DNA from: Breznakia blatticola
Lineage (GTDB): Bacteria > Bacillota_I > Bacilli_A > Erysipelotrichales > Erysipelotrichaceae
Direction: 5' to 3'
DNA: 29,340 nucleotides
Assembly: GCF_004365815.1 (NCBI RefSeq)
Contig: NZ_SODD01000034.1
Location: 1 to 29,340 of the forward strand
Shown here: positions 103 through 19,669 of the stretch, one piece after another
Position numbering within the stretch: position 1 is the stretch's first letter
Layout: each line of letters starts with the position of its first letter
Notes under the pieces: model-generated
What the model was told of the DNA's origin: nothing
Databases searched by the model: none
Seen by the model: the letters and a program-made list of their open reading frames with translations, nothing else
Program-made: the position numbers and the translations under genes

Positions 103-303
103 ATGAAATTTCGTGAACTAGATACGGTAAAAGTGACAAAGGATATTAATGGTAAAGTAAAAAAAGATATGGTAGGTGTTATTGTATATGCGACGGAAGG
201 TTATGATATTTATGAAGTAGAATTCTTAGATATAGAAGGTTATACGATAGATTTACAAACTATAAATGAAGAAAATCTTGAGTTAATATCAAATAATGAA
301 TAA
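103..303 (+). CDS. DUF4926-like small protein (66 aa)
   Basis: ORF with SD GGAGAG (91-96) 6 nt before the ATG. The pattern ELDtV..tkDi....kkdmvGvIV.....yDiYEVEFlD.eGyTi matches my recollection of the DUF4926 family. No search was run. Confidence 0.65.
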   Translation: MKFRELDTVKVTKDINGKVKKDMVGVIVYATEGYDIYEVEFLDIEGYTIDLQTINEENLELISNNE

Positions 304-716
304 AGATTCTAATATTTAATATGGTGCAGGGATGTTATGTAAACATGTCAATAATTTTCGTAAAATGACTAAGTAAAACAGGTAGTACAGTGCAAAGTTT
401 AATGCAGCTGGTGTGATAATAACTAAAATGCAGCTGGAAAGTTATTATGGCTTAAAAAAGGTAATTCATCTGCTGGATAATAACATATTATAATCGGTCG
501 TATCACAGATTTCGTTGATAAAAGAATTACAGGAGTATCTAATTTTTAAGACGAACCATCGATTGATGCTTGAGTTAGTGAGATGAGTTCTTTGTAGAAT
601 GTTTAGTAAATAGTAGTACTTATCGAAGTGTACAATTGTATATAGAACTAGCGAATTTATTATTACATTCTATCCAATTAATTTGAATATAAAAGAAAAC
701 TTGGATAGGCTATTGA

Positions 717-939
717 ATTGCAGGAATTAAACTTTCAAACCAGTTAGAAGATGAATTGAAAGGATTACAAAAAGACTATGAAACATATTTTGATATGAGT
801 GATCAAATGAATCCAACTTCTTTGTCTGAAGATAAAAAAATATGAAACGCGCTTTTGAAGTTAGAGACGAATTGCAAAAGAATTAGGTTCGGATTTTAAA
901 ATGATAAATGAAGTTGAAAAAATGTTACCTAATTTATAG
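717..939 (+). pseudogene. Possible decayed ORF. Three consecutive frame-shifted helical, charged reading-frame pieces.
   Basis: Frame pieces are ..IKLSNQLEDELKGLQKDYETYFDMSDQMNPTSLSEDKKI* (stop 843-845, just after an A7 run at 834-840), MKRAFEVRDELQKN*, and GSDFKMINEVEKMLPNL* (stop 937-939). No intact start or SD. Family not recognised. Confidence 0.25.
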
Positions 940-1024
940 GTGATTAAAATGTTTCAATGATTTCCAAATTCTTTTAAGAAACATATTCAAGAAAGGAAAA
1001 TAAAAATAGAGCACAAAAAATATA

Positions 1025-1133: not shown

Positions 1134-1589
1134 TTGAGAGAGATTTGGAACAAGGTACTATTTACCGTAAAGACAAAAGAAGTTAAGGTAAAGCATGTAG
1201 TTGTTGTGTTGTTGCTACTGTTATTACTTCTGCTTTTGCAACAATGTACAAGTGTTAAGGATGATGATCAAAAGAAAGCAGATACCATTGAAAATGTATG
1301 TGAATTAGCATCAATTAATACAGATGAGTTACAAATATTGTTGGAACGTAGCGATCTATGTAGTGAAAAATGGTACGAAGATTATGAAGACTATGAAGAT
1401 GCATTAGTTGAACAGCATAAACTGCTTAAGAAACATGAGGGGAAAAAACAAAAACAATTGTATAAAAAACAAGAAGTGTTGATTAAAGCAGTTAAAGAAT
1501 TCAAAGAAAAAGAAACTGAGGCAAGTGTGAATGCTTTAGAAAAAGCATATGAAGAATATCGAACATATGCAAAAAGTGTGTGTAAATAA
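1134..1589 (+). CDS. Membrane-anchored (signal-anchor or atypical lipoprotein) coiled-coil protein, 151 aa, function unknown
   Basis: TTG start with strong SD AAGGGGG (1121-1127) and 6-nt spacing. Basic N-region KTKEVKVKH, then V4L10, then QQC. The C-terminal ~110 aa are charged and heptad-like (EKWYEDYEDYEDALVEQHKLLKKHEGKKQKQLYKKQEVLIKAVKEFKEKE). It ends 11 nt (or 32 nt to ATG 1622) before the RHS gene, so co-transcription is likely. Confidence 0.7.
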   Translation: MREIWNKVLFTVKTKEVKVKHVVVVLLLLLLLLLLQQCTSVKDDDQKKADTIENVCELASINTDELQILLERSDLCSEKWYEDYEDYEDALVEQHKLLKKHEGKKQKQLYKKQEVLIKAVKEFKEKETEASVNALEKAYEEYRTYAKSVCK

Positions 1590-1600
1590 TTAAACATAGA

Positions 1601-4600
1601 ATGAAAAGGGAAAGAATAGACATGAGAAAGAAACTATTACCAGTATTTTTAGTGTGTCTGATGCTGTTACAAGTATCTGATACCGGGCTGCGTGTGTTAG
1701 CTGCGCAGTCAAATCGAATTACTCCAGGTGCAAGTTATGGAAGTATGTATCAAAAAGATATACAAAGAGAGATTGTTAATGTATATGATGCAAATGATGA
1801 TGCCCAGGAAGAAGCTGTAGTTACAAAGGAAGCAAGTAACTATGATTTAAGTGATCCATACGAATCGTATGAAGAGGTTGAAGACAAGCGTGAGATTAAT
1901 TCAAAAACGTATGAAATTCAAAAAGGCGTTTTCGTTAAGGAAACGTATTTTGAACCAATTCATAAAGAAGAAAATGGGAAACTAGTTGATATTGATGATC
2001 GATTAGAAAACGTAAATCGATCACGTTCAAATAAAGCAATTTATAAAAGTAAAGATGGATTGCTTGATGTACAAATTGATGGAAACAGTGTTCGTGTAAC
2101 AAATGAAGAAACAAGTGATTTGCAATGGAGTTTACCAGATGCAGATGTTTCACATTATAGTGTAAAAGAGAATGTAATTTTATTTACGAATGTATATAAA
2201 AACATCGATATGGAATATGTAATACGTTCAAATAAAGTATTTACTACGTTCTATATCAATGGACCTGTTGAAAAATCTACATTGGATTTTATTTTTACTA
2301 GTCAACATTTGACAAGTAAAGAGACAGACGATGGAGTTGTGTTTTATCGTAGTGATAATCCAGATCAAGATGTATATGTGTTTGCCAAGCCAACAATTCG
2401 AAGTGCAACAGAAGCGATTGGAAACAGTCAAATCACATATGAAAATGCACAGGATGGCGTACATGTATCATTGAGTTTAGATCAAACTTGGATTAATGAT
2501 AGTGCTCAAGTATATCCAATTGCTTTAAGCACAAGAGCGGCAAATCTTGAAGTATTGAATATTACATCTTGTTATGTGCGTAGTGAAACACCAAACTTTA
2601 GTTCAAGTCAATATAGTGATTTGTTTGTTGGATACGATAACGAGTTTTGGGCAGGTATTGGTGTACGAACTGGTGTTAACCGTTCATATTTTTACATCGA
2701 TAAACCAAATCTTGGAAACAACATGCGTGTTGAAAAGGCAAACTTAGAATTATTTAAAGAGCAAGATGGTATTGAGCAAGGTGTAAGTCACCTAATGGGA
2801 AAAAACATTGAAGCGTATGAATGTGCCAATGCAAATTTAAATACACTAACTTGGAATACCCAACCAACTATAGAGAAAAAACTATCAACAAATAATGTTG
2901 AAGGAGTTAAAAACAAATATTATAAATTTGATATTACAGGTTATGTTAGTAGTCGGTACAAAGGGATTGAAAAAACACTATTATTAAAGGCAGAAGATGA
3001 GTCAATTAACGCATTTGCGAATGTTTTTAATAGTGAAAGTACAGCAAGTCGTCCAAGAATTACGATTGAATATCGTGAAGATTATGATGTGGATCCAAAC
3101 CTTTCCATTGAAAATTTTGATCAAGAGCTACGTGTTGTTAGTAAACTAAATGATGGATTTAAAGCATTAAGTTTAGATGGTCTAATAAAACCATATGCAA
3201 CAGCTGTATTTAAATTACATGAAAAACAAGATGGTAACTCTACAGTTATTAATGAACTTCTTTCCATGAGTGTAGGAGGAGCATATTTTTCTCATCCAAT
3301 CGTATTTACAAACCCATATGGAAGTGGACATACAGTACAACCATCTTACAATGGAAATAAAGAGGGTCAAAACTATACAACAAATTATGTAAAGGCAGAA
3401 AGTATACCAAAATTTGATACTTTATACGAGTATGTTATGAAGGTTAAAAAAGATGGTGTAGAGAGTGCAAAAAGTATCACAACGGATGGATTTATCAAGT
3501 ATAAAGTTAAAAATGGAGATACATTACGTTCTATTGCTTCGTATTATGGAGTAAGTATTGATCAAATCAAACTGGATAATAATCAAAGTAGCAATAGTGT
3601 CTATGCTGGACAAGTATTATTTATCCGCTTTAAGAAAGATAATACCAAAGTACCAAAAGATGTTTATACACCACCACTACGTACGATTACGTATGAAGCT
3701 AAATATGTATATCGAGGACCACAATGTTATGGAACTTGTCCTATTGGGGATCCAATTACGACAACCAATGGAAACTTTTACTATGAAACAGAAGATTTCA
3801 CTTTAAAAGATTATGATGCATTTACTTTCCACCGTTACTACAACTCAACGGGAGAACAAGTTTCAAATATGTTTGGAAATGGGTTTACAAGTAATTTGGA
3901 ACAATATGTAACCTATGATGAAAATAAAAACATCTTATTTTTCAGAGGGGATGGGAAGATTCTTCAAATTGATAAAACCGCAAATGGATATACACCAAAA
4001 ACGACAGATCGTATTGAAATTGAAGTAAAACAAGATGAAGTTCAAATCTTTGATATTGAAACTGGAAGAACGTATGTATTTGATAGTTATGGAACACTTG
4101 TGACTATCATTGAAAAAACTGGACACAAAACGACTATTTCTTATGATGCATATGGTGCAATTCAAAGTATTCGTGTTGGTGAAAAGGAAATTAGTTTTAC
4201 CTACAATGAAAACAATTTAGTGCAAAGTATTCAATTACCAAATGGAAAAAGTGTAAGTTATACTTATGATGCAAAACGTAATTTAACATCATATACAAAT
4301 GTGTTAGGACACAAAGAAACATATAACTATGATGATAAGAATTTCATGCGTAGTATCATTGATAAAAATGGAAATACTATTGCCACAAATACCTATGATG
4401 ATGAAGGTAAAGTAAAAAGCCAAAAGGATGGAAAAGGTCAAGAAATGAAGTTTTCTTATACAAATAAGAAGACGGATATTACTCTAGCTGATAATACAAA
4501 AGTGACGTATGAACATGAAGACTTTAAAACAACGAAAGTTGCCTATGGAGATGGTTCAAGCAGTTCATATCGCTATGATACGTATGGCAATATTATTGAG

Positions 4601-7600
4601 AAAATCGATGAAGATCAAAATAAAACAACGTATACGTATGATAAACATGATTTACTTGAAATCGCATATCCAGATGGAACGACAGAAAGTTATACGTATA
4701 ATAGCGCACACCAAGTAACAAGTAAAACGGGTCGTGATGGTGGAGTAGAGTATTTTGCATATCAAGGAAATGATCTAGTAAAACATACGTTAGCAGATGG
4801 AACATTTACAACATATACGTATGATGCAAATCATCGTGTAGTAACAGAAACAAGTGCTACAGGTGCATCAAAGACATATACATATAGTGGAAATCAAATT
4901 GCCAGCATTACACATTCAAATGGTCTAGTTGAAAACTTTACGTATGATGCAAGTGGAAACGTGTTGAAAGAAAGTGATAACCAGGGTAAAAATCAAACGT
5001 ATTTGTATAACGATAATAATCAAATGATTAAGAAAACGTATACGGATGGGACTTATGAAGAGTGGGGTTATGATGGTAATGGAAACATTACAAGTTATCG
5101 TGACCGCATTGGTGGAATCACTACAAATACATATGATAAAAACAATAATGTAATTGCTAGTAAAAAAGGAAGTCTAACAAATTCGAAAGTTTATGATAGT
5201 AATAACCAGTGTATCAAAGAAACAGATGCACAAGGAATTACAAAAACATATACCTATGATGCTAAACTTAGATTAATTAAGGAAAGTGATGGCTTAGGTA
5301 ATGAAATAAGTTATACGTATGATGCCTTAGACCATGTAATTAAAACGATTGATGTACGTGGACAAGAAAGTACAGATACATATGATCAAGATTTATTAAT
5401 CAAACATGTTGATGCTGCTGGATTAGAAACGACATATAGCTATGATGATAAAAACCGTGAAATCGAAAAAGCATATACCAATGGAACCAAAGAAAGTAAA
5501 GTATATACAGGTTTACTTTTAACTGAAGAAAGCGACATTCGTGGACAAAAAACAACGTATACGTATGATGCATATAGTCGTATCAAAACAAAGACTGTGA
5601 GTATTGGTGAGATTGAACATGTAACAACATATACCTACGATAGTAATAACAATATTACAAAAGAAGATGTAGATGGTGTGGTCACAACGTATGCGTATGA
5701 TGTGTACAATCGTAAGATCAAAGAAACAGATCCATTAGGATTCACGACTTCGTATACATATAACTTTGATGATGAAATCATTTCTACAACGGATGCATTA
5801 GGAAATACATCAACACAAACGTATGATGGTGAAGGAAATCTAATTAAAGAAACCGATAAAAATGGAAATACAGTAGAACATGTTTATAATGCACAAGGAT
5901 TTCTTGTTGCTGAAAAGGATGCTCTAGGAAATACAACAACGTATGCATACAACGAAAAAGGACAATGCATTACAGTTGTTGATCCATATGGATTTACAAC
6001 ATCATTTACATATAGCAAATACAATCAATTGCTTGATACATATCAAGAAGGTACATTAATTGAAAGTATTACATACAACAAATATGGGGATGTAAAAACA
6101 AAGAAAAATACAGAACTGAATGAAAGTTATACGTATGATCATTTTGGTCGACAAGTAACAAAAACAGATCAATATACACAACTACAAACAACAACAAGCT
6201 ATGATGTGTATGGAAATGTAACTAAAGAAGAAGATAGCAATGGAAGAAGTAGTTCTTTCACTTATGATGTATATAACCAAAAATTGACTGAAATCGATGC
6301 ATATGGTCGTACAACAAGCTATACATATGACCAACTTGGACAAGTTATTTCTACAACAAATGCACAAGGAACAACAAGTCAAGTGTACGACAAAAATGGA
6401 AATGTGATTGAAAGTATTTCACCGCTTGGTGTAAGTACAACATACGCATACAACAAACGTAATGAGAAAATCAAAGAAGTCATTGGTGATAAAGAATTAG
6501 CATATAGTTATGATGGACTGGGTCAATTAACGAAGACGACAGATGTAAAACGCAAGAGTGAAACGACGACAAGTTATGATGCAAATGGAAATGTGACTAA
6601 AGAAGTGGATGCATTAGGTAATGCAATCACTTACACATACGATGCAAAAAACCAAAAAGTATCAACAACTGATGCATTAGGAAATACCAGCAAAACGGAA
6701 TATGATGCTAACGGAAATGTAACTAAGGAAATCGATGCACTAGGAAATACAAAACAAAGTTCATATAATGCATACCAACAGCTAGAAAAAGAAGTAGATG
6801 CACGTGGGTTTGAAACGCTATATAGTTATGATGATGCACTACGTTTAGTTAAGGTAGAAGATGCTATTGGTGGATCTATTACATACATATATAATGATGC
6901 AAATAAAGTCAGCAAAGAAACAAATAGTGAAGGTTTTAGTAAGACATTTGTATACGATGACTATGGTCAAATCATTGAAGAAAGTGACTATAATGGTGTC
7001 ATTACAAAACGAAGTTATGATGTACTAGGAAATGTTGTAAAAGAAACAACAGCAAATAAAACAACAACTTCTGTTTATGATGAAAAAGGAAATCATGTAA
7101 AAACAAGTGTAAATGATGTCGTGCAAGAACAATTTACCTACAATGATTACAATCAAGTTGCAACGAAAAAAGATGGAAATTCAAATGTTACAACTTACAC
7201 ATATGATACATATGGAAATGTTAGTACTGAAGATGCTGCAGGTTATAAAACAGCATATACATACAATGTATATGGAGAACTTCTTGAGAAAGTAGAAAAC
7301 GATACATACAAAGAAAGTTACGTATATGATGCAAAAAACCAACTTACTGAAACAAAGGTAAATGGTAAAACTGCACAAACAAAAACATACGATGCAAATG
7401 GGAATATAATCCAAGAAGCAGAGTATGGAAAAGTGATCGAAACACAATATGATGCATGCAATCGTCCATCTGCATATCTTGTAGAATATGAAGGAAGTAT
7501 GCAAGTAATTCAAAGTGTTACATATGATGAAAGTGGTAATGCAATTACAATTACAGATGCTAATGGTAATACAGAACAAAGAACATTTGATGCAAATGGA

Positions 7601-10273
7601 AATGAAACTAGCTTTATAAACAAGCGAGGTATCAAACAACTATTTGCTTATGATACACTTGGTCAACTAGAAAAAGCTGAAAATGCACAAGGACGTGTTG
7701 TTAGATATACGTATGATGGAAATGGAAATGCACTTACAAAAACTGTAGGAACAAAAATGGCAGTATATACATATGATGATTTCAATCAATGTACCTATGA
7801 GAAAAATGAATATGGATATGTAGAGAAAACAAAATATGATGTATTTGGTAATAAAGTTGAAGAAACAAAACCAGATGGCACAATTATTACATATGCTTAT
7901 GACAACAATAACAACCAGATTCAAAAGAATAGTCAAACCTTCAGTTATGATAAACGAAACAACCTAATTAAAGCAGAAGGTGCAAATGGCACAATCACAT
8001 ATACATATGATGCATTTGACCAAATGCTAACTTCAACAAATGCAAACAAAGAAACTGTAAGTTATGCTTACAATAAAGATAAGCAATTATCTAAAATGAC
8101 TTACGCAAATAAAGACGTCGTTACTTATAGTTATAAAGATGGTATGTTGTCTACTGTGAAAAAGAACGATGCAACAATTGCAACGTATTCATATAACAAT
8201 AGAGGTGAGCTTGTTGATCTTGTGCAAGGAAATATGCAATCAACATTTGCTTATGACAAATTAGGAAATGTAATAAAGCAAGATATCTACAAGGATAAGA
8301 AACTCGAACAAAGCCGTACGTATGCATATGATGCAAATGATAATGTCGTTAAAGAAGTTATTGATGGCAAAGAAAATAACTATGTGTATAATGATGCAGA
8401 TGAGCTAAGTGAAAGTAGTAAATATGTAGATGGAAAATTAGTTAAGACATCTTACACATACGATATGTATGGAAACAAACGTGTTTCAAGTAATGATGAA
8501 GGTGTTAAAACGTATACATATAATGATAAAAACCAATTAGAAAGTGTTGAAAGTACAAAAGGTGTAAGTCGTTACTACTACAACGATAATGGAAACCTTA
8601 CAAGTAAAGTGAATTCTGATGGTAGTAAAGAAGTGTATACATATGATGAATTTGACCATTTAGTTGAACATCAAAAAGGTGATTATATCTATACCTTTGC
8701 ATATGATGCACAAGGAGATAAAATCAGTGAAAGTAAACAAGATGTACGAACATATCAAAAACAAGTATGGTATGATTATGAAGGAGTCATCGATGTTACT
8801 GCTTCAAGTGATACAAAAGTTAAAAATACATTTGATGGACTACGCCAACAAGTAAAAACAAAAGAAGCAAATGGTGGTGTCTGTACATACCAAGGAACAA
8901 GTTCATATACTGCAAGCTACAAAAAAGATGTAGAAGTGACAGATTTCGTTCTTGATAAGAATGTAGAGTATACACAAATTCTAGAAACAAATGGAAATGG
9001 TAATGTGTATGGATTATCCATCTTGGAAGAAGATGGAACTACATTAGTAGCAAGTTTAAATGACAGTATTGCATTACAAGTAAAAAACAACAAAGTTACG
9101 AAACTAACGTACAGTGATTATGGTAAAACAAGTAATATAGCACAAAGTCATGCATACAATGGAGAGTACCAACAAGAAACAGGACTCATCTATTTACGTG
9201 CTAGATACTATGATCCAACTATCGGAAACTTTATCCAAATCGATCGCAACTACAAAGGTGAAAACACAGATGTAGCAACTCAAAACCGTTACAACTATGC
9301 ATTAAGTAATCCTTACAAGTATGTGGATAGAGATGGGAATAAAGCAAAGAAAAAGAAGAAACAAAGTGTAGTAAGTGCTGTTGTTGGTAGCGTGAAAAAT
9401 GTAGTGTCTAGTATTAAAACGAATATTGTTCAGTCGACAACGATGGTGATGCGGAGCGAAACCATGTATAATTTGATGGATTTAGTAGTACAAATTTCAC
9501 CATATTTTACTTCAGAAATGGCGAAGGTAACTACATTATTAGCAGTAACTCCGGCAACTACAATAGGTTTAGTGATGTATGGTGCTGTAGCAACTCCGGC
9601 AAGTTTGATTTGTGGTATAGAAAAAGCAATAAGATTTACTGAAATGACGCCTACGCAGCAACAAGCATATGTGAATGCTTGGGAGCATCAATTGGGTGGT
9701 AGACTGTATGCTGGTCCTTACGTAGCGGATAAAATGATGAATTTATACTACGAAAGTATGGGATATACAACAAGAATACCAGAAAAAGCACAAGTAAAAG
9801 AGGATAAAGCAATAAGCTACGTTTCTGAAAATAGTTCGACAGGATCAATGGTTGCGGCAGCACAAGAACAGCAACAACCAAAACAACCGAAAAAAGATGA
9901 TGACGATGATAAGAAGAAAGATAAAAATAAAAATTCAGATAAGGGTTCGAATAGTAATATAAAAGGGAATGATGTTACATATAATCAAAGATCTGTAGAT
10001 AAAGCTTTTGGTAAACATGGAAGTGATTTTGGTAATTACCCTGATGGAAGTAAAGGTAGTATTCAACAGTATCAAAATGATATATCAAAATTCATTGATA
10101 GTCCTAATAATATTCAAAAACCAGGAACCTGGTGGGGTTCTCAAGGAACACATATATATAATCCAACTACAAATCAATGGGTATTTATTAATGCTGATGG
10201 TACGTTTAATACAGGATTCAAGCTCTCAGCAGATCAGATGAAGTATTTAATAGAGACAGGAGTGGTAAAATAA
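1601..10273 (+). CDS. Secreted LysM-domain RHS/YD-repeat polymorphic toxin with a C-terminal colicin-D-like nuclease domain (2,890 aa)
   Basis: The more probable start is ATG 1622 (SD-like AAAGGGAAAG at 1605-1614), giving a Sec-type signal MRKKLLPVFLVCLMLLQV..RVLA|AQ. LysM-like segment at 3500-3625. Plug-like motif GDPITTTNGNFYYETEDF from ~3737, followed by dozens of YD repeats. RHS core end is YLRARYYDPTIGNFIQIDRNY..NRYNYALSNPYKYVDRDGN (9194-9340). A 310-aa variable tail follows. Confidence 0.95.
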   Translation: MKRERIDMRKKLLPVFLVCLMLLQVSDTGLRVLAAQSNRITPGASYGSMYQKDIQREIVNVYDANDDAQEEAVVTKEASNYDLSDPYESYEEVEDKREINSKTYEIQKGVFVKETYFEPIHKEENGKLVDIDDRLENVNRSRSNKAIYKSKDGLLDVQIDGNSVRVTNEETSDLQWSLPDADVSHYSVKENVILFTNVYKNIDMEYVIRSNKVFTTFYINGPVEKSTLDFIFTSQHLTSKETDDGVVFYRSDNPDQDVYVFAKPTIRSATEAIGNSQITYENAQDGVHVSLSLDQTWINDSAQVYPIALSTRAANLEVLNITSCYVRSETPNFSSSQYSDLFVGYDNEFWAGIGVRTGVNRSYFYIDKPNLGNNMRVEKANLELFKEQDGIEQGVSHLMGKNIEAYECANANLNTLTWNTQPTIEKKLSTNNVEGVKNKYYKFDITGYVSSRYKGIEKTLLLKAEDESINAFANVFNSESTASRPRITIEYREDYDVDPNLSIENFDQELRVVSKLNDGFKALSLDGLIKPYATAVFKLHEKQDGNSTVINELLSMSVGGAYFSHPIVFTNPYGSGHTVQPSYNGNKEGQNYTTNYVKAESIPKFDTLYEYVMKVKKDGVESAKSITTDGFIKYKVKNGDTLRSIASYYGVSIDQIKLDNNQSSNSVYAGQVLFIRFKKDNTKVPKDVYTPPLRTITYEAKYVYRGPQCYGTCPIGDPITTTNGNFYYETEDFTLKDYDAFTFHRYYNSTGEQVSNMFGNGFTSNLEQYVTYDENKNILFFRGDGKILQIDKTANGYTPKTTDRIEIEVKQDEVQIFDIETGRTYVFDSYGTLVTIIEKTGHKTTISYDAYGAIQSIRVGEKEISFTYNENNLVQSIQLPNGKSVSYTYDAKRNLTSYTNVLGHKETYNYDDKNFMRSIIDKNGNTIATNTYDDEGKVKSQKDGKGQEMKFSYTNKKTDITLADNTKVTYEHEDFKTTKVAYGDGSSSSYRYDTYGNIIEKIDEDQNKTTYTYDKHDLLEIAYPDGTTESYTYNSAHQVTSKTGRDGGVEYFAYQGNDLVKHTLADGTFTTYTYDANHRVVTETSATGASKTYTYSGNQIASITHSNGLVENFTYDASGNVLKESDNQGKNQTYLYNDNNQMIKKTYTDGTYEEWGYDGNGNITSYRDRIGGITTNTYDKNNNVIASKKGSLTNSKVYDSNNQCIKETDAQGITKTYTYDAKLRLIKESDGLGNEISYTYDALDHVIKTIDVRGQESTDTYDQDLLIKHVDAAGLETTYSYDDKNREIEKAYTNGTKESKVYTGLLLTEESDIRGQKTTYTYDAYSRIKTKTVSIGEIEHVTTYTYDSNNNITKEDVDGVVTTYAYDVYNRKIKETDPLGFTTSYTYNFDDEIISTTDALGNTSTQTYDGEGNLIKETDKNGNTVEHVYNAQGFLVAEKDALGNTTTYAYNEKGQCITVVDPYGFTTSFTYSKYNQLLDTYQEGTLIESITYNKYGDVKTKKNTELNESYTYDHFGRQVTKTDQYTQLQTTTSYDVYGNVTKEEDSNGRSSSFTYDVYNQKLTEIDAYGRTTSYTYDQLGQVISTTNAQGTTSQVYDKNGNVIESISPLGVSTTYAYNKRNEKIKEVIGDKELAYSYDGLGQLTKTTDVKRKSETTTSYDANGNVTKEVDALGNAITYTYDAKNQKVSTTDALGNTSKTEYDANGNVTKEIDALGNTKQSSYNAYQQLEKEVDARGFETLYSYDDALRLVKVEDAIGGSITYIYNDANKVSKETNSEGFSKTFVYDDYGQIIEESDYNGVITKRSYDVLGNVVKETTANKTTTSVYDEKGNHVKTSVNDVVQEQFTYNDYNQVATKKDGNSNVTTYTYDTYGNVSTEDAAGYKTAYTYNVYGELLEKVENDTYKESYVYDAKNQLTETKVNGKTAQTKTYDANGNIIQEAEYGKVIETQYDACNRPSAYLVEYEGSMQVIQSVTYDESGNAITITDANGNTEQRTFDANGNETSFINKRGIKQLFAYDTLGQLEKAENAQGRVVRYTYDGNGNALTKTVGTKMAVYTYDDFNQCTYEKNEYGYVEKTKYDVFGNKVEETKPDGTIITYAYDNNNNQIQKNSQTFSYDKRNNLIKAEGANGTITYTYDAFDQMLTSTNANKETVSYAYNKDKQLSKMTYANKDVVTYSYKDGMLSTVKKNDATIATYSYNNRGELVDLVQGNMQSTFAYDKLGNVIKQDIYKDKKLEQSRTYAYDANDNVVKEVIDGKENNYVYNDADELSESSKYVDGKLVKTSYTYDMYGNKRVSSNDEGVKTYTYNDKNQLESVESTKGVSRYYYNDNGNLTSKVNSDGSKEVYTYDEFDHLVEHQKGDYIYTFAYDAQGDKISESKQDVRTYQKQVWYDYEGVIDVTASSDTKVKNTFDGLRQQVKTKEANGGVCTYQGTSSYTASYKKDVEVTDFVLDKNVEYTQILETNGNGNVYGLSILEEDGTTLVASLNDSIALQVKNNKVTKLTYSDYGKTSNIAQSHAYNGEYQQETGLIYLRARYYDPTIGNFIQIDRNYKGENTDVATQNRYNYALSNPYKYVDRDGNKAKKKKKQSVVSAVVGSVKNVVSSIKTNIVQSTTMVMRSETMYNLMDLVVQISPYFTSEMAKVTTLLAVTPATTIGLVMYGAVATPASLICGIEKAIRFTEMTPTQQQAYVNAWEHQLGGRLYAGPYVADKMMNLYYESMGYTTRIPEKAQVKEDKAISYVSENSSTGSMVAAAQEQQQPKQPKKDDDDDKKKDKNKNSDKGSNSNIKGNDVTYNQRSVDKAFGKHGSDFGNYPDGSKGSIQQYQNDISKFIDSPNNIQKPGTWWGSQGTHIYNPTTNQWVFINADGTFNTGFKLSADQMKYLIETGVVK
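2560..3080 (+). other. N-terminal surface/carbohydrate-binding-like domain of the RHS protein (DNRLRE/CBM96-like, tentative)
   Basis: The segment YVRSETPNF..SDLFVGYDN....RSYFYIDKPNLG...VEKANLELF...LNTLTWNTQP...PRITIEY resembles my memory of DNRLRE-domain surface proteins. A DDRLEN motif lies at 1994-2011. Not verified by HMM. Confidence 0.35.
3500..3625 (+). other. LysM peptidoglycan-binding domain within the RHS protein
   Basis: YKVKNGDTLRSIASYYGVSIDQIKLDNNQSSNSVYAGQVLFI fits the LysM consensus (Y.V..GDTL..IA..YgvsvdqL...N.l.....l..GQ.L.I). Confidence 0.8.
3737..9340 (+). repeat. RHS shell: tandem degenerate YD repeats plus the RHS-associated core
   Basis: The unit ..(Y/F)xYDxxGNxxxxxDxxGxxxx(Y/F).. 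recurs throughout, e.g. YTYDAKRNLTSYTN, YRYDTYGNIIEKID, YTYDANHRVVTETS, TSYDANGNVTKEVDALGN. The region is terminated by the YYDPTIGNF...VDRDGN core. Confidence 0.9.
9341..9976 (+). other. Pre-toxin part of the RHS C-terminal tail: Lys-rich start, hydrophobic/helical module, low-complexity linker
   Basis: KAKKKKKQ sits directly after the predicted cleavage motif. The stretch SVVSAVVGSVKNVV...VTTLLAVTPATTIGLVMYGAVATPASLICGI (about 9527-9620) is long enough for membrane-interacting helices. The linker AAAQEQQQPKQPKKDDDDDKKKDKNKNSDKGSNSN spans about 9854-9958. Confidence 0.6.
9977..10270 (+). other. Colicin-D-like (BECR-fold tRNase type) toxin domain
   Basis: TYNQRSVDKAFGKHGSDFGNYPDGSKGSIQQYQNDISKFIDSPNNIQKPGTWWGSQGTHIYNPTTNQWVFINADGTFNTGFKLSADQMKYLIETGVVK. 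The spacing of KH..DFG, GT(W/Y).G, (Y/F).NP.T and G.F.(S/T)G(F/W)KLS..Q is what I remember for colicin D / Colicin_D-family CT domains. Needs an HMM or structure check. Confidence 0.6.
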
Positions 10274-10722
10274 TGGGAGTATATATATTGTCTGTGATGA
10301 CAAAAGAAATAGTGGAATCTACTAAAGTTTCTTTGATACAAAAAAGAATTCAATTGATATATCCTAGAAATGAAATTAATTATAGTCAATATAATTATAA
10401 TGATAGAAACCATAAAGAATTAGATTTTGATATTACTGAAATTTATTTTAATAAAGATAAAATAGATGAGGAGATTAGCTTGTTAATTAAGGCAATTAAA
10501 GAGATATTTTGCATCTTAGAATCTGATTGTGAAATTATTGGTGGTTTCAATGACACTGAAAATGCTATCATGCAATATGAGAAAGATAAAGAAAACAATT
10601 ATATGAATTGGGGGTTATTTGCGACTAAAAATCCTATCTCAAAATCAAATGTTTATTACGAAAAAGACGGGTTATATATATACCATAGTTTTAAATATGA
10701 TAGTATGGGAGTAGTTTTTTAG
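10273..10722 (+). CDS. Candidate cognate immunity protein (149 aa, no recognisable family)
   Basis: The ATG overlaps the toxin stop codon (TAATG at 10271-10275). SD AGGAG lies about 11 nt upstream, inside the toxin gene. No signal peptide or TM segment. Visibly more AT-rich than its neighbours. Position is typical of RHS immunity genes. Confidence 0.65.
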   Translation: MGVYILSVMTKEIVESTKVSLIQKRIQLIYPRNEINYSQYNYNDRNHKELDFDITEIYFNKDKIDEEISLLIKAIKEIFCILESDCEIIGGFNDTENAIMQYEKDKENNYMNWGLFATKNPISKSNVYYEKDGLYIYHSFKYDSMGVVF

Positions 10723-18397: not shown

Positions 18398-19669
18398 CTA
18401 CATATTTATGATTGTGATTTGGTTGGTATATGTTGCGATTGCTTGATCCACCGCAACCACGAGTGTATCGTGGTTGGTAATGGTTACATCACTATAGCTT
18501 TCGTATAATGGTGCACGCGTATCATATAGTTGTTGAATTGCTTCTTTACTAGAACTTAGTGGTCTTGATGGATCACTAAGTAATTGGTCGATATCTCGAT
18601 CAATATAAATAAGGAAGCCATTGTGTTGTAAATTCTTAATATTCTCATAGTTCTTAACAATTCCTCCACCACATGAAATAACTACGTGATGTGAATTAGC
18701 AAGTTCTTTTGTGACTTGTGTTTCTATTTCGCGAAAAGCAGCTTCACCATGTAATTCAAAATACTTGGCAATTGGCATTTGGATGCGTTCAACAATTTGT
18801 GCATCAATATCGATAACCTCACGCTTTAGCTTTGTACATACTTCATTTGCGATGGTAGTTTTGCCACTACTAGGCATACCGATAAACACTAAGTTACTTT
18901 GTTCAAGTAAGAGTTCTTGGTAAATGCTCTCAATATGTACATCATCAATGGTGATGTCTTTAAAATACTCAACTGCATATTTTGCTTGTGCAACTAACAT
19001 TTCAAGTCCATTTACACAAGGAATGTTATACTTTTTCGCTTCTAATAGAAAACTGGTACGCAGTGGATTGTATATTACATCCACACATGCTTCAAGTTTA
19101 TCAAATCCATCAAGGTCAATTGGCGATGCATCAACTTGTGGTGACATTCCTACTGGTGTTGTTTGAATGATAATTTCACAGTCTCTATGCTTTTTATAGA
19201 TTTCATCGAGTGTCATAGTTTCTTTACTAGCGATGATATCAACAATCAACACTTGTTTTGCATTTGCTTGATGTACAACTTCTTGAATTGCTTTACTGGC
19301 TCCACCGTTTCCCATGATTAGCACTTTTTTTCCTTGTAAGGAAATGTTGTGTTTTCGTAAGGTATATGCAAAACCTAAGTAATCCGTATTATAGCCGATC
19401 AATTTTCCATCTCGATTCACGATAGTGTTTACAGCACCGATACGTTTGGCACTTTCATCGATTTCATCAAGATAAGGAATTACGGTTTGCTTATATGGTA
19501 TTGTCACATTAATCGCTTTAAAATCTTTTGCTTTCATAAATGCATCGATATCCTCTTTTGCGATTTCTTTTAGTTGGTATGTATAGTCACTTACGAGTTG
19601 TTCGTGAATGACTTTGGAAAAACTATGACCGAGTTTTTCACCAATTAATCCGTATTCCATATTATTCAC
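18398..19669 (-). CDS. aroE: Bifunctional shikimate dehydrogenase / shikimate kinase (AroE-AroK fusion)
   Basis: The N-terminal ~255 aa carry AroE motifs (GLIGEKLGHSFS, NVTIPYKQ, GAVNTIV, GYNTDYLGF, GNGGASKA). The C-terminal ~165 aa carry AroK motifs (NLVFIGMPSSGKTT, DID, FRE.E, ISCGGG). Confidence 0.9.
   Translation of the reverse strand: MNNMEYGLIGEKLGHSFSKVIHEQLVSDYTYQLKEIAKEDIDAFMKAKDFKAINVTIPYKQTVIPYLDEIDESAKRIGAVNTIVNRDGKLIGYNTDYLGFAYTLRKHNISLQGKKVLIMGNGGASKAIQEVVHQANAKQVLIVDIIASKETMTLDEIYKKHRDCEIIIQTTPVGMSPQVDASPIDLDGFDKLEACVDVIYNPLRTSFLLEAKKYNIPCVNGLEMLVAQAKYAVEYFKDITIDDVHIESIYQELLLEQSNLVFIGMPSSGKTTIANEVCTKLKREVIDIDAQIVERIQMPIAKYFELHGEAAFREIETQVTKELANSHHVVISCGGGIVKNYENIKNLQHNGFLIYIDRDIDQLLSDPSRPLSSSKEAIQQLYDTRAPLYESYSDVTITNHDTLVVAVDQAIATYTNQITIINM

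Follow-up and report, generated by a model that had tools for sequence, protein, structure and literature searches.

The closest described counterpart of the locus analyzed here is the colicin D/ImmD pair of Escherichia coli (1V74, 1TFO), in which, according to the passage of PMC12582261 that cites Graille et al. 2004, ImmD blocks the active site of the toxin by tRNA mimicry. Zhang et al. 2012 (PMC3482391) recognized ImmD as the major and Imm64 as the second immunity family for the Tox-ColD domain, and listed Imm22 for the ColD/E5 fold. Imm64, an alpha+beta protein that partners with Tox-ColD, occurs in Firmicutes among other phyla and exhibits conserved DxEA and Arg motifs (PMC3482391); it is structurally related to Imm52 (6JDP_A) and CdiI (6D7Y_B) (Li et al. 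2022, PMC9424270). A 2026 preprint on the classification of BECR toxins adds that related toxins of this kind often have unrelated immunity proteins. We analyzed a stretch of 29,340 nucleotides (nt) from Breznakia blatticola (contig NZ_SODD01000034.1), which as a whole is called the window hereafter, where a polymorphic RHS toxin gene ending in a ColD tail overlaps a downstream gene for a 149-amino-acid (aa) protein. We consider it very probable that this protein, as the cognate partner of the ColD-type RNase tail of the RHS toxin, confers immunity to it. The features on which the analysis centers are the following.

1601..10273, plus strand: polymorphic toxin gene, 2890 aa (open reading frame (ORF) list, translation, Pfam)
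9998..10246, plus strand: Colicin_D (PF11429) RNase domain, toxin residues 2800-2882 (Pfam, E 1.6e-11 / 2.3e-10)
10258..10265, plus strand: Shine-Dalgarno-like AGGAGTGG (GGAGTGG; GGAG at 10259-10262), 10 nt upstream of the ATG
10271..10275, plus strand: TAATG stop/start overlap (read from the sequence)
10273..10722, plus strand: immunity-candidate gene, 149 aa, ATG start (ORF list, translation)

The 149-aa protein is a member of a family that every source annotates as "hypothetical protein". A word-indexed search of 5.8 billion proteins returned two close relatives (73% and 59% identity), and a HMMER search of 1.84 billion cluster representatives with a three-sequence profile found 29 representatives at E < 1e-3, mostly 144-150 aa long. 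After further searches and locus scans, the family totals 49 distinct full-length sequences of about 145-150 aa, all of them acidic with an isoelectric point (pI) of 4.1-5.9. These homologues are 20-74% identical and display common motifs, in which D94 is invariant and Y42, E49, D51, D53, F59, T95, Y102, G114, T118, Y137 and S144 are nearly so. The ratio of nonsynonymous to synonymous substitution rates (dN/dS) among members is 0.1-0.35, the mark of purifying selection. The named hosts are Listeria welshimeri, L. marthii, L. monocytogenes, Pilibacter termitis, Paenibacillus macerans and P. tyrfis, to which Jeotgalibacillus and many gut or insect-gut metagenomes can be added; a single 90%-identity cluster from L. 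monocytogenes has 64 member sequences, found on hundreds of contigs. An ORF lying in the DNA of lowest guanine-cytosine (GC) content in the window, and lacking any database annotation, might be dismissed as a chance frame in AT-rich spacer DNA. That reading, whose probability we consider negligible, is refuted by the 49 homologues with their motifs, the dN/dS of 0.1-0.35, a confident structural model (mean predicted local distance difference test (pLDDT) of 91.1) and a conserved start context. The candidate is thus a real gene.

The evidence that carries the immunity reading is the linkage of this family to one type of toxin tail. When loci were collected from the toxin side, with an alignment of the tail subclade, a family member lay directly downstream in 21 of 21 (E 1e-45 to 1e-60), namely 7/7 loci from GTDB sampled at one genome per species, 13/13 JGI metagenome loci and the single L. 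monocytogenes locus; since several of these duplicate loci were also reached when starting from the immunity gene, not all of the 21 count as independent. From the immunity side, a ColD tail or its remnant lies directly upstream in nearly all loci. The upstream gene encodes a 382-aa Colicin_D protein with the same 1-nt overlap in L001, a 700-aa ColD protein in L007/8, and ColD tails in L009/10 and in L011, where the tail belongs to an RHS protein. In Pilibacter (L013/14) the tail is missed or barely detected by Pfam and is recognized by the subclade hidden Markov model (HMM) with an E of 1e-49. Elsewhere the toxin is reduced to a 173-aa orphan ColD fragment, within an LXG toxin locus that also has an orphan ColE5 cassette (L003), or to a decayed or truncated ColD remnant, such as KGTHVYNPKKRLWAFINEYGTLNTAFKLSEEKLKHLLETGIVK*, with the TAATG kept (L002 and three L. 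welshimeri genomes, L004-6). The junction is mostly TAATG in related loci, with TAGTG, TAAATG or TAATATG in a few, and in most of them GGAGTGGT precedes it at the same position. A first-pass annotation of the window, made from the sequence alone, had named co-variation of the gene with this tail type as a check on its immunity proposal, and wide occurrence without an adjacent toxin as the observation that would speak against it; the first is what we see in all 21 toxin-side loci, and the second was not seen among the loci collected from the immunity side.

Linkage to the tail holds across several kinds of delivery protein. The delivery domains are of the RHS type in the window, L011 and L015 and of the LXG type in L016 (Pfam 2e-33), the N-termini of the L001 and L007 toxins are of unknown kind, and arrays of orphans lie behind LXG toxins in L003 and L004. 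A Mantel test correlates the pairwise identities of the toxin tails with those of the immunity proteins (r = 0.85, p = 1e-4), the latter diverging much faster (21-74% identity vs. 47-89% for the tail). The pair is moreover AT-rich in every host, the GC content of the immunity gene being 0.23-0.31 even where that of the upstream toxin body reaches 0.57, and its AT-richness is therefore a property of the mobile cassette and not of the window. We conclude that the tail and the 149-aa gene form a two-gene cassette, which is grafted onto different delivery proteins and is also retained as an orphan module. No known plasmid bacteriocin corresponds to it, for neither the tail nor the immunity protein had a tblastn match in 72,556 plasmids; the ColD alignment likewise had no match among viral contigs.

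A dedicated accessory factor for the tail (a chaperone, a stabilizer or an export/loading adaptor) would also be expected to show tight coupling and strict co-occurrence with it, and one family member is indeed fused to DUF4176, a family seen in type VII secretion system (T7SS) loci. Orphan copies speak for inhibition instead. The immunity gene is intact beside ColD remnants of 30-60 residues or frameshifted copies in L002, L004-6, L018, L019, L021, L034 and L035, and the orphans of L002 and L003 evolve with a dN/dS of 0.1-0.3. Retention under purifying selection beside a toxin that is cut down to 30-50 residues or frameshifted (L002, L004, L018, L021, L034, L035) is the signature of immunity, because the chaperone of a dead toxin would decay. 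Furthermore, the same partner follows the tail whether delivery is of the Sec/RHS or of the T7SS/LXG type, which ties it to the toxic domain and not to the secretion route, and those chaperones of LXG and RHS toxins that are known have their genes ahead of the toxin gene, on its upstream side. We therefore regard an accessory role as very improbable. Comparative genomics (linkage, intactness beside truncated toxins and purifying selection) thus strongly supports the immunity role that the first-pass annotation had proposed for the gene, and it is from these patterns that we infer protection.

Several cassettes of this type have features of their own. In a metagenome-assembled genome of the Christensenellales (L020, 459..902) the immunity ORF is split by a stop beside a ColD remnant, while in Paenibacillus daejeonensis (L018, 2571..3207) it is the ColD tail that is frameshifted and the immunity gene that is intact, so decay can strike either partner. 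Loci L007 and L008 are one 23-kb contig (ENA ERZ21878447 ctg41421c), in which the pair lies in an apparently tandemly duplicated block of small unannotated genes and forms a striking compositional island, with a GC content of about 0.57 upstream and 0.31-0.37 in the cassette. The LXG-ColE5 toxin loci of Listeria welshimeri (L004-L006) and L003 are followed by arrays of orphan cassettes, consisting of an EndoU fragment with a 104-aa gene and a ColD remnant with a gene of the family analyzed here, to which L006 adds a Ribonuclease/Barstar pair. Genes for 147-155-aa proteins following ColE5 domains have no Pfam match and may represent another unnamed immunity family.

As for the partner toxin in the window, its parts come in the following order, the named domains being Pfam matches: a signal-like hydrophobic N-terminus, CBM96, LysM, DUF6531, RHS/YD repeats, a linker with hydrophobic stretches and the ColD tail. 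The signal-like segment was read by eye from MRKKLLPVFLVCLMLLQV... at the N terminus. Within the last 290 residues of the toxin, PF11429 scores 44.8 bits (E 1.6e-11) against a curated cut-off of 25, and the final 100 can be aligned over their full length with the colicin D catalytic domain (1TFO, 1V74; E about 1e-6). Residues K607, K610, H611, D614 and K680 of colicin D are kept in the toxin tail, S677 is replaced by Thr, which is likewise an alcoholic residue, and K608 by Ala. Since this satisfies the Tox-ColD motif set (catalytic K, K-H, D, S/T..K) defined by Zhang et al. 2012 (PMC3482391), the tail is a ColD-type RNase with an apparently intact active site, which bears out the ColD-type assignment considered in the first-pass annotation. 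The tail is the presumed target of the 149-aa protein. Another Gram-positive ColD-like toxin, AbpT of Priestia megaterium, was reported to be a promiscuous RNase in vitro (PMC12582261).

In the region of the toxin that precedes the ColD domain (window positions 9150..9980, toxin residues about 2520-2790), the end of the RHS core reads ...NPYKYVDRDGNK in place of the usual ...DPxGH/L, which the related RHS toxins of L011 and L015 have as ADPTGH and LDPTGH. Between this core and the ColD domain come a poly-Lys run, two stretches that are hydrophobic and membrane-like, and a linker, KKDDDDDKKKDK, with many charged residues. A similar hydrophobic pre-toxin region is seen in the 382-aa protein of L001, and in the window toxin this region could be a translocation or entry module.

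The two genes of the cassette share a base in the window. The toxin TAA occupies 10271-10273 and the candidate ATG 10273-10275, the A at 10273 being common to both, and the sequence around the start is GGAGTGGTAAAATAATGGGAG. This overlap suggests translational coupling, because one base serves both the toxin stop and the candidate start. A putative Shine-Dalgarno sequence, AGGAGTGG, sits within the last toxin codons, which encode ...ETGVVK. A scan for promoters around the junction gave 10 sites where 10.3 were expected, nothing above chance, and a terminator scan gave none after the candidate ORF; these scans are no evidence either way on independent expression of the gene. The candidate ORF has a GC content of 0.251, while the toxin gene stands at 0.326 and the window at 0.339, and only 0.3% of all 450-bp segments have a GC content as low; the lowest value for such a segment (0.249, at 10301) falls inside it. 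The encoded protein has a pI of 4.88 and a net charge of about -7. Its Kyte-Doolittle hydropathy, averaged over 19 residues, peaks at 1.24 and thus gives no sign of a membrane segment, and AlphaFold models its N-terminus as a β-strand, not as a signal peptide. On all these points, namely the A shared by the ATG and the toxin TAA, the Shine-Dalgarno sequence inside the 3' end of the toxin gene, the AT-richness relative to the surroundings and the acidic, cytoplasmic-looking character of the product, the first-pass annotation was accurate.

AlphaFold predicts a confident fold for the 149-aa protein, with a pLDDT that rises from 72.7 with three sequences to a mean of 91.1, with a predicted template-modeling score of 0.87, when 31 sequences are used. 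The modeled elements are β 3-10, α 16-29, β 35-40, β 48-55, α 61-82 and β 86-91, which are followed by a C-terminal extension made of α 95-109 and three short strands. The predicted fold is thus a ferredoxin-like domain with a C-terminal extension. In Foldseek searches of the PDB with the shallow and the deep model, and of viral predicted structures with the deep one, the best E was about 3e-3 and the template-modeling score at most 0.42, the values for the best 50 PDB matches of the deep model being 3.3e-3 and at most 0.41; the matches listed for the PDB and for the viral structures were all generic ferredoxin-like proteins (ribosomal protein S6, PII, ACT domains and de novo ferredoxin designs). 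There was no immunity protein among the matches listed for the PDB, where these were the best 50 for the deep model, or for the viral predicted structures. Along strand β3, E49, D51 and D53, all acidic and near-invariant, take alternate positions and would hence be directed to one face of the sheet, while D94-T95-E96 would cap helix α3, a placement derived from secondary structure and not from coordinates.

How the protein would act can be sketched from these elements. Ribosomes ending the toxin would re-initiate on the immunity gene, so that immunity would be made whenever toxin is made. The acidic, cytoplasmic protein would bind the RNase domain 1:1, both in the producer and in siblings that receive the toxin, and would block the basic active-site cleft of the tail as ImmD blocks that of colicin D. 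Contact would be made by the near-invariant acidic residues, E49, D51 and D53 on the β3 face and D94-T95-(E96) at the start of α3. By analogy with ImmD, we put the chances of an active-site plug formed by these conserved acidic residues at about even. Immunity might also be achieved by other means, such as binding to an exosite, the mode of the immunity proteins of colicin DNases, or an activity of the invariant acidic cluster that is enzymatic or protects the substrate. In a protein that evolves so fast, the invariant D94 and the near-invariant E49, D51, D53, T95 and Y102 could be a metal or catalytic site, and ferredoxin-like folds, including those of the S6, PII and ACT type found by Foldseek, often bind RNA or small ligands. 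However, no enzyme family was matched in Pfam, NCBIfam or Foldseek, no immunity protein of a BECR-fold toxin is known to act enzymatically, and it is simpler to suppose that the residues invariant in the immunity proteins face the catalytic ones that are invariant in the toxins. The chance that occlusion of the active site is not involved at all seems slim to us.

The active-site plug can be carried further, to a proposal that we regard as rather unlikely: the family would counter the ColD RNase with a fold new to this task, a ferredoxin-like plug of the invariant K/K-H/D/T site, and it would be one whose members cross-protect and whose orphans are stand-alone shields and not strictly cognate partners. 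Cross-protection would follow from the conservation of both sides of the proposed contact across the subclade. If this were true, orphans, for example those in hundreds of L. monocytogenes genomes, would shield their hosts against ColD tails from other strains and species, arriving via T7SS-LXG or Sec-RHS delivery.

Some observations weigh against an immunity protein acting on the tail in this manner. Binding, protection and the surface of contact are matters of inference. With a pI of 6.9 the toxin tail is close to neutral overall, and electrostatic complementarity with the candidate would consequently be local, not global. The correlation of pairwise identities could arise simply because toxin and immunity gene are inherited together as a linked pair. 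Where an orphan copy has no full toxin frame to be coupled to, another route of expression must exist. In L012, which carries the most divergent member (P0026), the 266 nt available upstream contain no toxin remnant. Finally, two members are fusions: P0018 (285 aa) has a C-terminal DUF4176 (E 2e-11), and P0028 (448 aa) a C-terminal region of 300 aa without a Pfam match.

The rest of the window is ordinary chromosome, with genes for MgsA, MntP, Hsp20, an aromatic amino-acid biosynthesis cluster, YchF and others. At its left end, a 66-aa ORF (103..303, plus strand) matches DUF4926 (PF16277) above the cut-off, with an E of 7e-9. DUF4926 is proposed as the immunity partner of BECR-Tox3/DUF6883 toxins in a 2026 preprint, and this ORF may be a second immunity gene or an orphan, any partner toxin lying beyond the left end of the window. 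On the way from the DUF4926 gene to the toxin operon, at 700..950, there are several short reading frames interrupted by stop codons, which may be what is left of a decayed gene or of a cassette. Next comes a 151-aa ORF with a TTG start (1134..1589, plus strand), which ends 12 nt before the RHS toxin gene and has no Pfam match. The hydrophobic run at its N-terminus, with ...LLLLQQC at the end, is similar to a lipoprotein signal, and the remainder of the protein is charged and looks helical. It could be an accessory lipoprotein of the toxin. On the other side, a 423-aa ORF (18398..19669, minus strand) combines the N-terminal domain of shikimate dehydrogenase with shikimate kinase and looks like an aroE-aroK fusion inside the aromatic amino-acid cluster.

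Profile searches set the 149-aa protein and its relatives apart from the known families. The candidate has no credible match in Pfam (E <= 10) or NCBIfam, none in PHROGs or PADLOC, and none among PDB sequences when searched on its own; a family profile built from 31 sequences (A4) had no match at E <= 10 in the full set of PDB chains, those of ImmD in 1V74 and 1TFO included. ImmD (PF09204) itself matches neither the candidate (E <= 10) nor any of 18 diverse members (E <= 1), and comparison of A4 with an ImmD-family protein by hhalign gave a probability of 0.2% and an E of 0.28. That ImmD-family protein comes from a control locus, L037, in which a ColD domain outside the subclade (29% identity to that of the window) is followed, with a 4-nt overlap, by an 87-aa PF09204 ImmD, and its recovery indicates that ImmD is detectable in this data set. 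None of the Imm, SUKH or DUF4279 Pfam models matched any of the 18 members (E <= 1), and the SUKH/SMI1 models did not match the candidate either. The first-pass annotation had seen no resemblance to ImmD or to SUKH/SMI1-type families, and this holds. Its suggestion of a non-homologous immunity solution for the ColD fold stands as far as non-homology to ImmD goes; the idea as such was not new, since such a second family had been described (PMC3482391). A DUF5880 match of the candidate was sub-threshold (E 0.039) and present in one of the 18 members only, and we attribute it to chance.

Imm64 deserves separate consideration, for a very divergent member of it would not be a new family. Both are alpha+beta, Imm64 is found with Tox-ColD and in Firmicutes (PMC3482391), and the D-T-E-x motif of the window family (D94, T95, E96) loosely recalls the DxEA of Imm64. 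Nevertheless, the residue after E96 is N, T or S and not a conserved A, and no Arg is invariant in the family or even conserved at 85% or more, the motifs of the two families being compared without an alignment register. Moreover, no Imm-family Pfam model matches the candidate or the 18 members at the thresholds given above, and the Imm64 relatives 6JDP_A and 6D7Y_B were not among the best 50 Foldseek matches and did not appear in the profile search of PDB sequences. We give membership in Imm64 little credence. Judged by its sequences, the family appears to be a coherent, unnamed and new immunity family that serves a Firmicute subclade of ColD-type toxins and that these motif, Pfam and structure searches set apart from Imm64.

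Recognition of this family provides a functional label for "hypothetical proteins" in Listeria monocytogenes, L. welshimeri, Paenibacillus, Jeotgalibacillus, Pilibacter and gut or insect-gut metagenomes. It also brings out a compact, mobile, AT-rich toxin-immunity cassette that is common to Sec/RHS and T7SS/LXG delivery, and it provides a marker for orphan immunity genes, in the form of a ...ETGVVK*-TAATG junction followed by a match to the family HMM. The understanding of polymorphic toxin systems is unchanged by it, because the swapping of immunity families on one toxin fold is known and common.

When set beside colicin D and ImmD, the window pair shares the toxin-domain family, with the catalytic Lys, the Lys-His and the Asp kept and Ser replaced by Thr, and the arrangement of an immunity gene directly downstream and overlapping, whose product is small, acidic and cytoplasmic. 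However, the 149-aa protein is unrelated in sequence to the 87-aa ImmD and is predicted to be ferredoxin-like with an extension, and its toxin is a Sec-type RHS protein in a Firmicute, not a plasmid-borne protein with receptor and translocation domains. The substrate of colicin D is tRNA-Arg, cleaved in the anticodon loop, and it is by sequence that the window tail is likened to colicin D. Imm64 shares with the window family the partner toxin family, the phylum and the alpha+beta class; it differs in its Pfam model, which matches none of the 18 members, and in its structural relatives 6JDP_A and 6D7Y_B, absent from the best 50 Foldseek matches.

A modeled ferredoxin-like (FdL) domain with a C-terminal extension invites comparison with the six FdL immunity families described by Li, Tan & Zhang 2022 in Gram-positive S8-PTS loci (PMC9424270). 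Among these, FdL-Imm5 (DUF4279) and FdL-Imm6, like the CdiI of B. pseudomallei 1026b (4G6V_B), consist of one FdL domain with C-terminal extensions, and the partners of the six families are Ntox21, Ntox21-like, S8-VOC1 or Ntox33, not ColD (PMC9424270). The window family is, very probably, likewise a Gram-positive polymorphic-toxin immunity family. Since its toxin partner is different, DUF4279 is not matched in Pfam and 4G6V_B is not among the best 50 Foldseek matches, the resemblance, which depends on a model, would be at most at the level of fold class.

In its overall architecture the window toxin recalls WapA/WapI of Bacillus subtilis, where an RHS toxin that is secreted by Sec and associated with the cell wall ends in a tRNase and is followed downstream by its immunity gene. 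The families of tail and immunity protein are other ones there, and the likeness lies in the signal peptide, the wall- or carbohydrate-binding domains (here CBM96 and LysM), the RHS region, the variable RNase tail and the immunity gene that follows it. That several immunity families can serve one toxin fold is already well known from ImmD and Imm64, which makes this an ordinary discovery for the field and one that would not surprise a specialist. The family is nonetheless worth naming, as what appears to be a third, structurally distinct immunity family for the colicin D RNase fold beside ImmD and Imm64.

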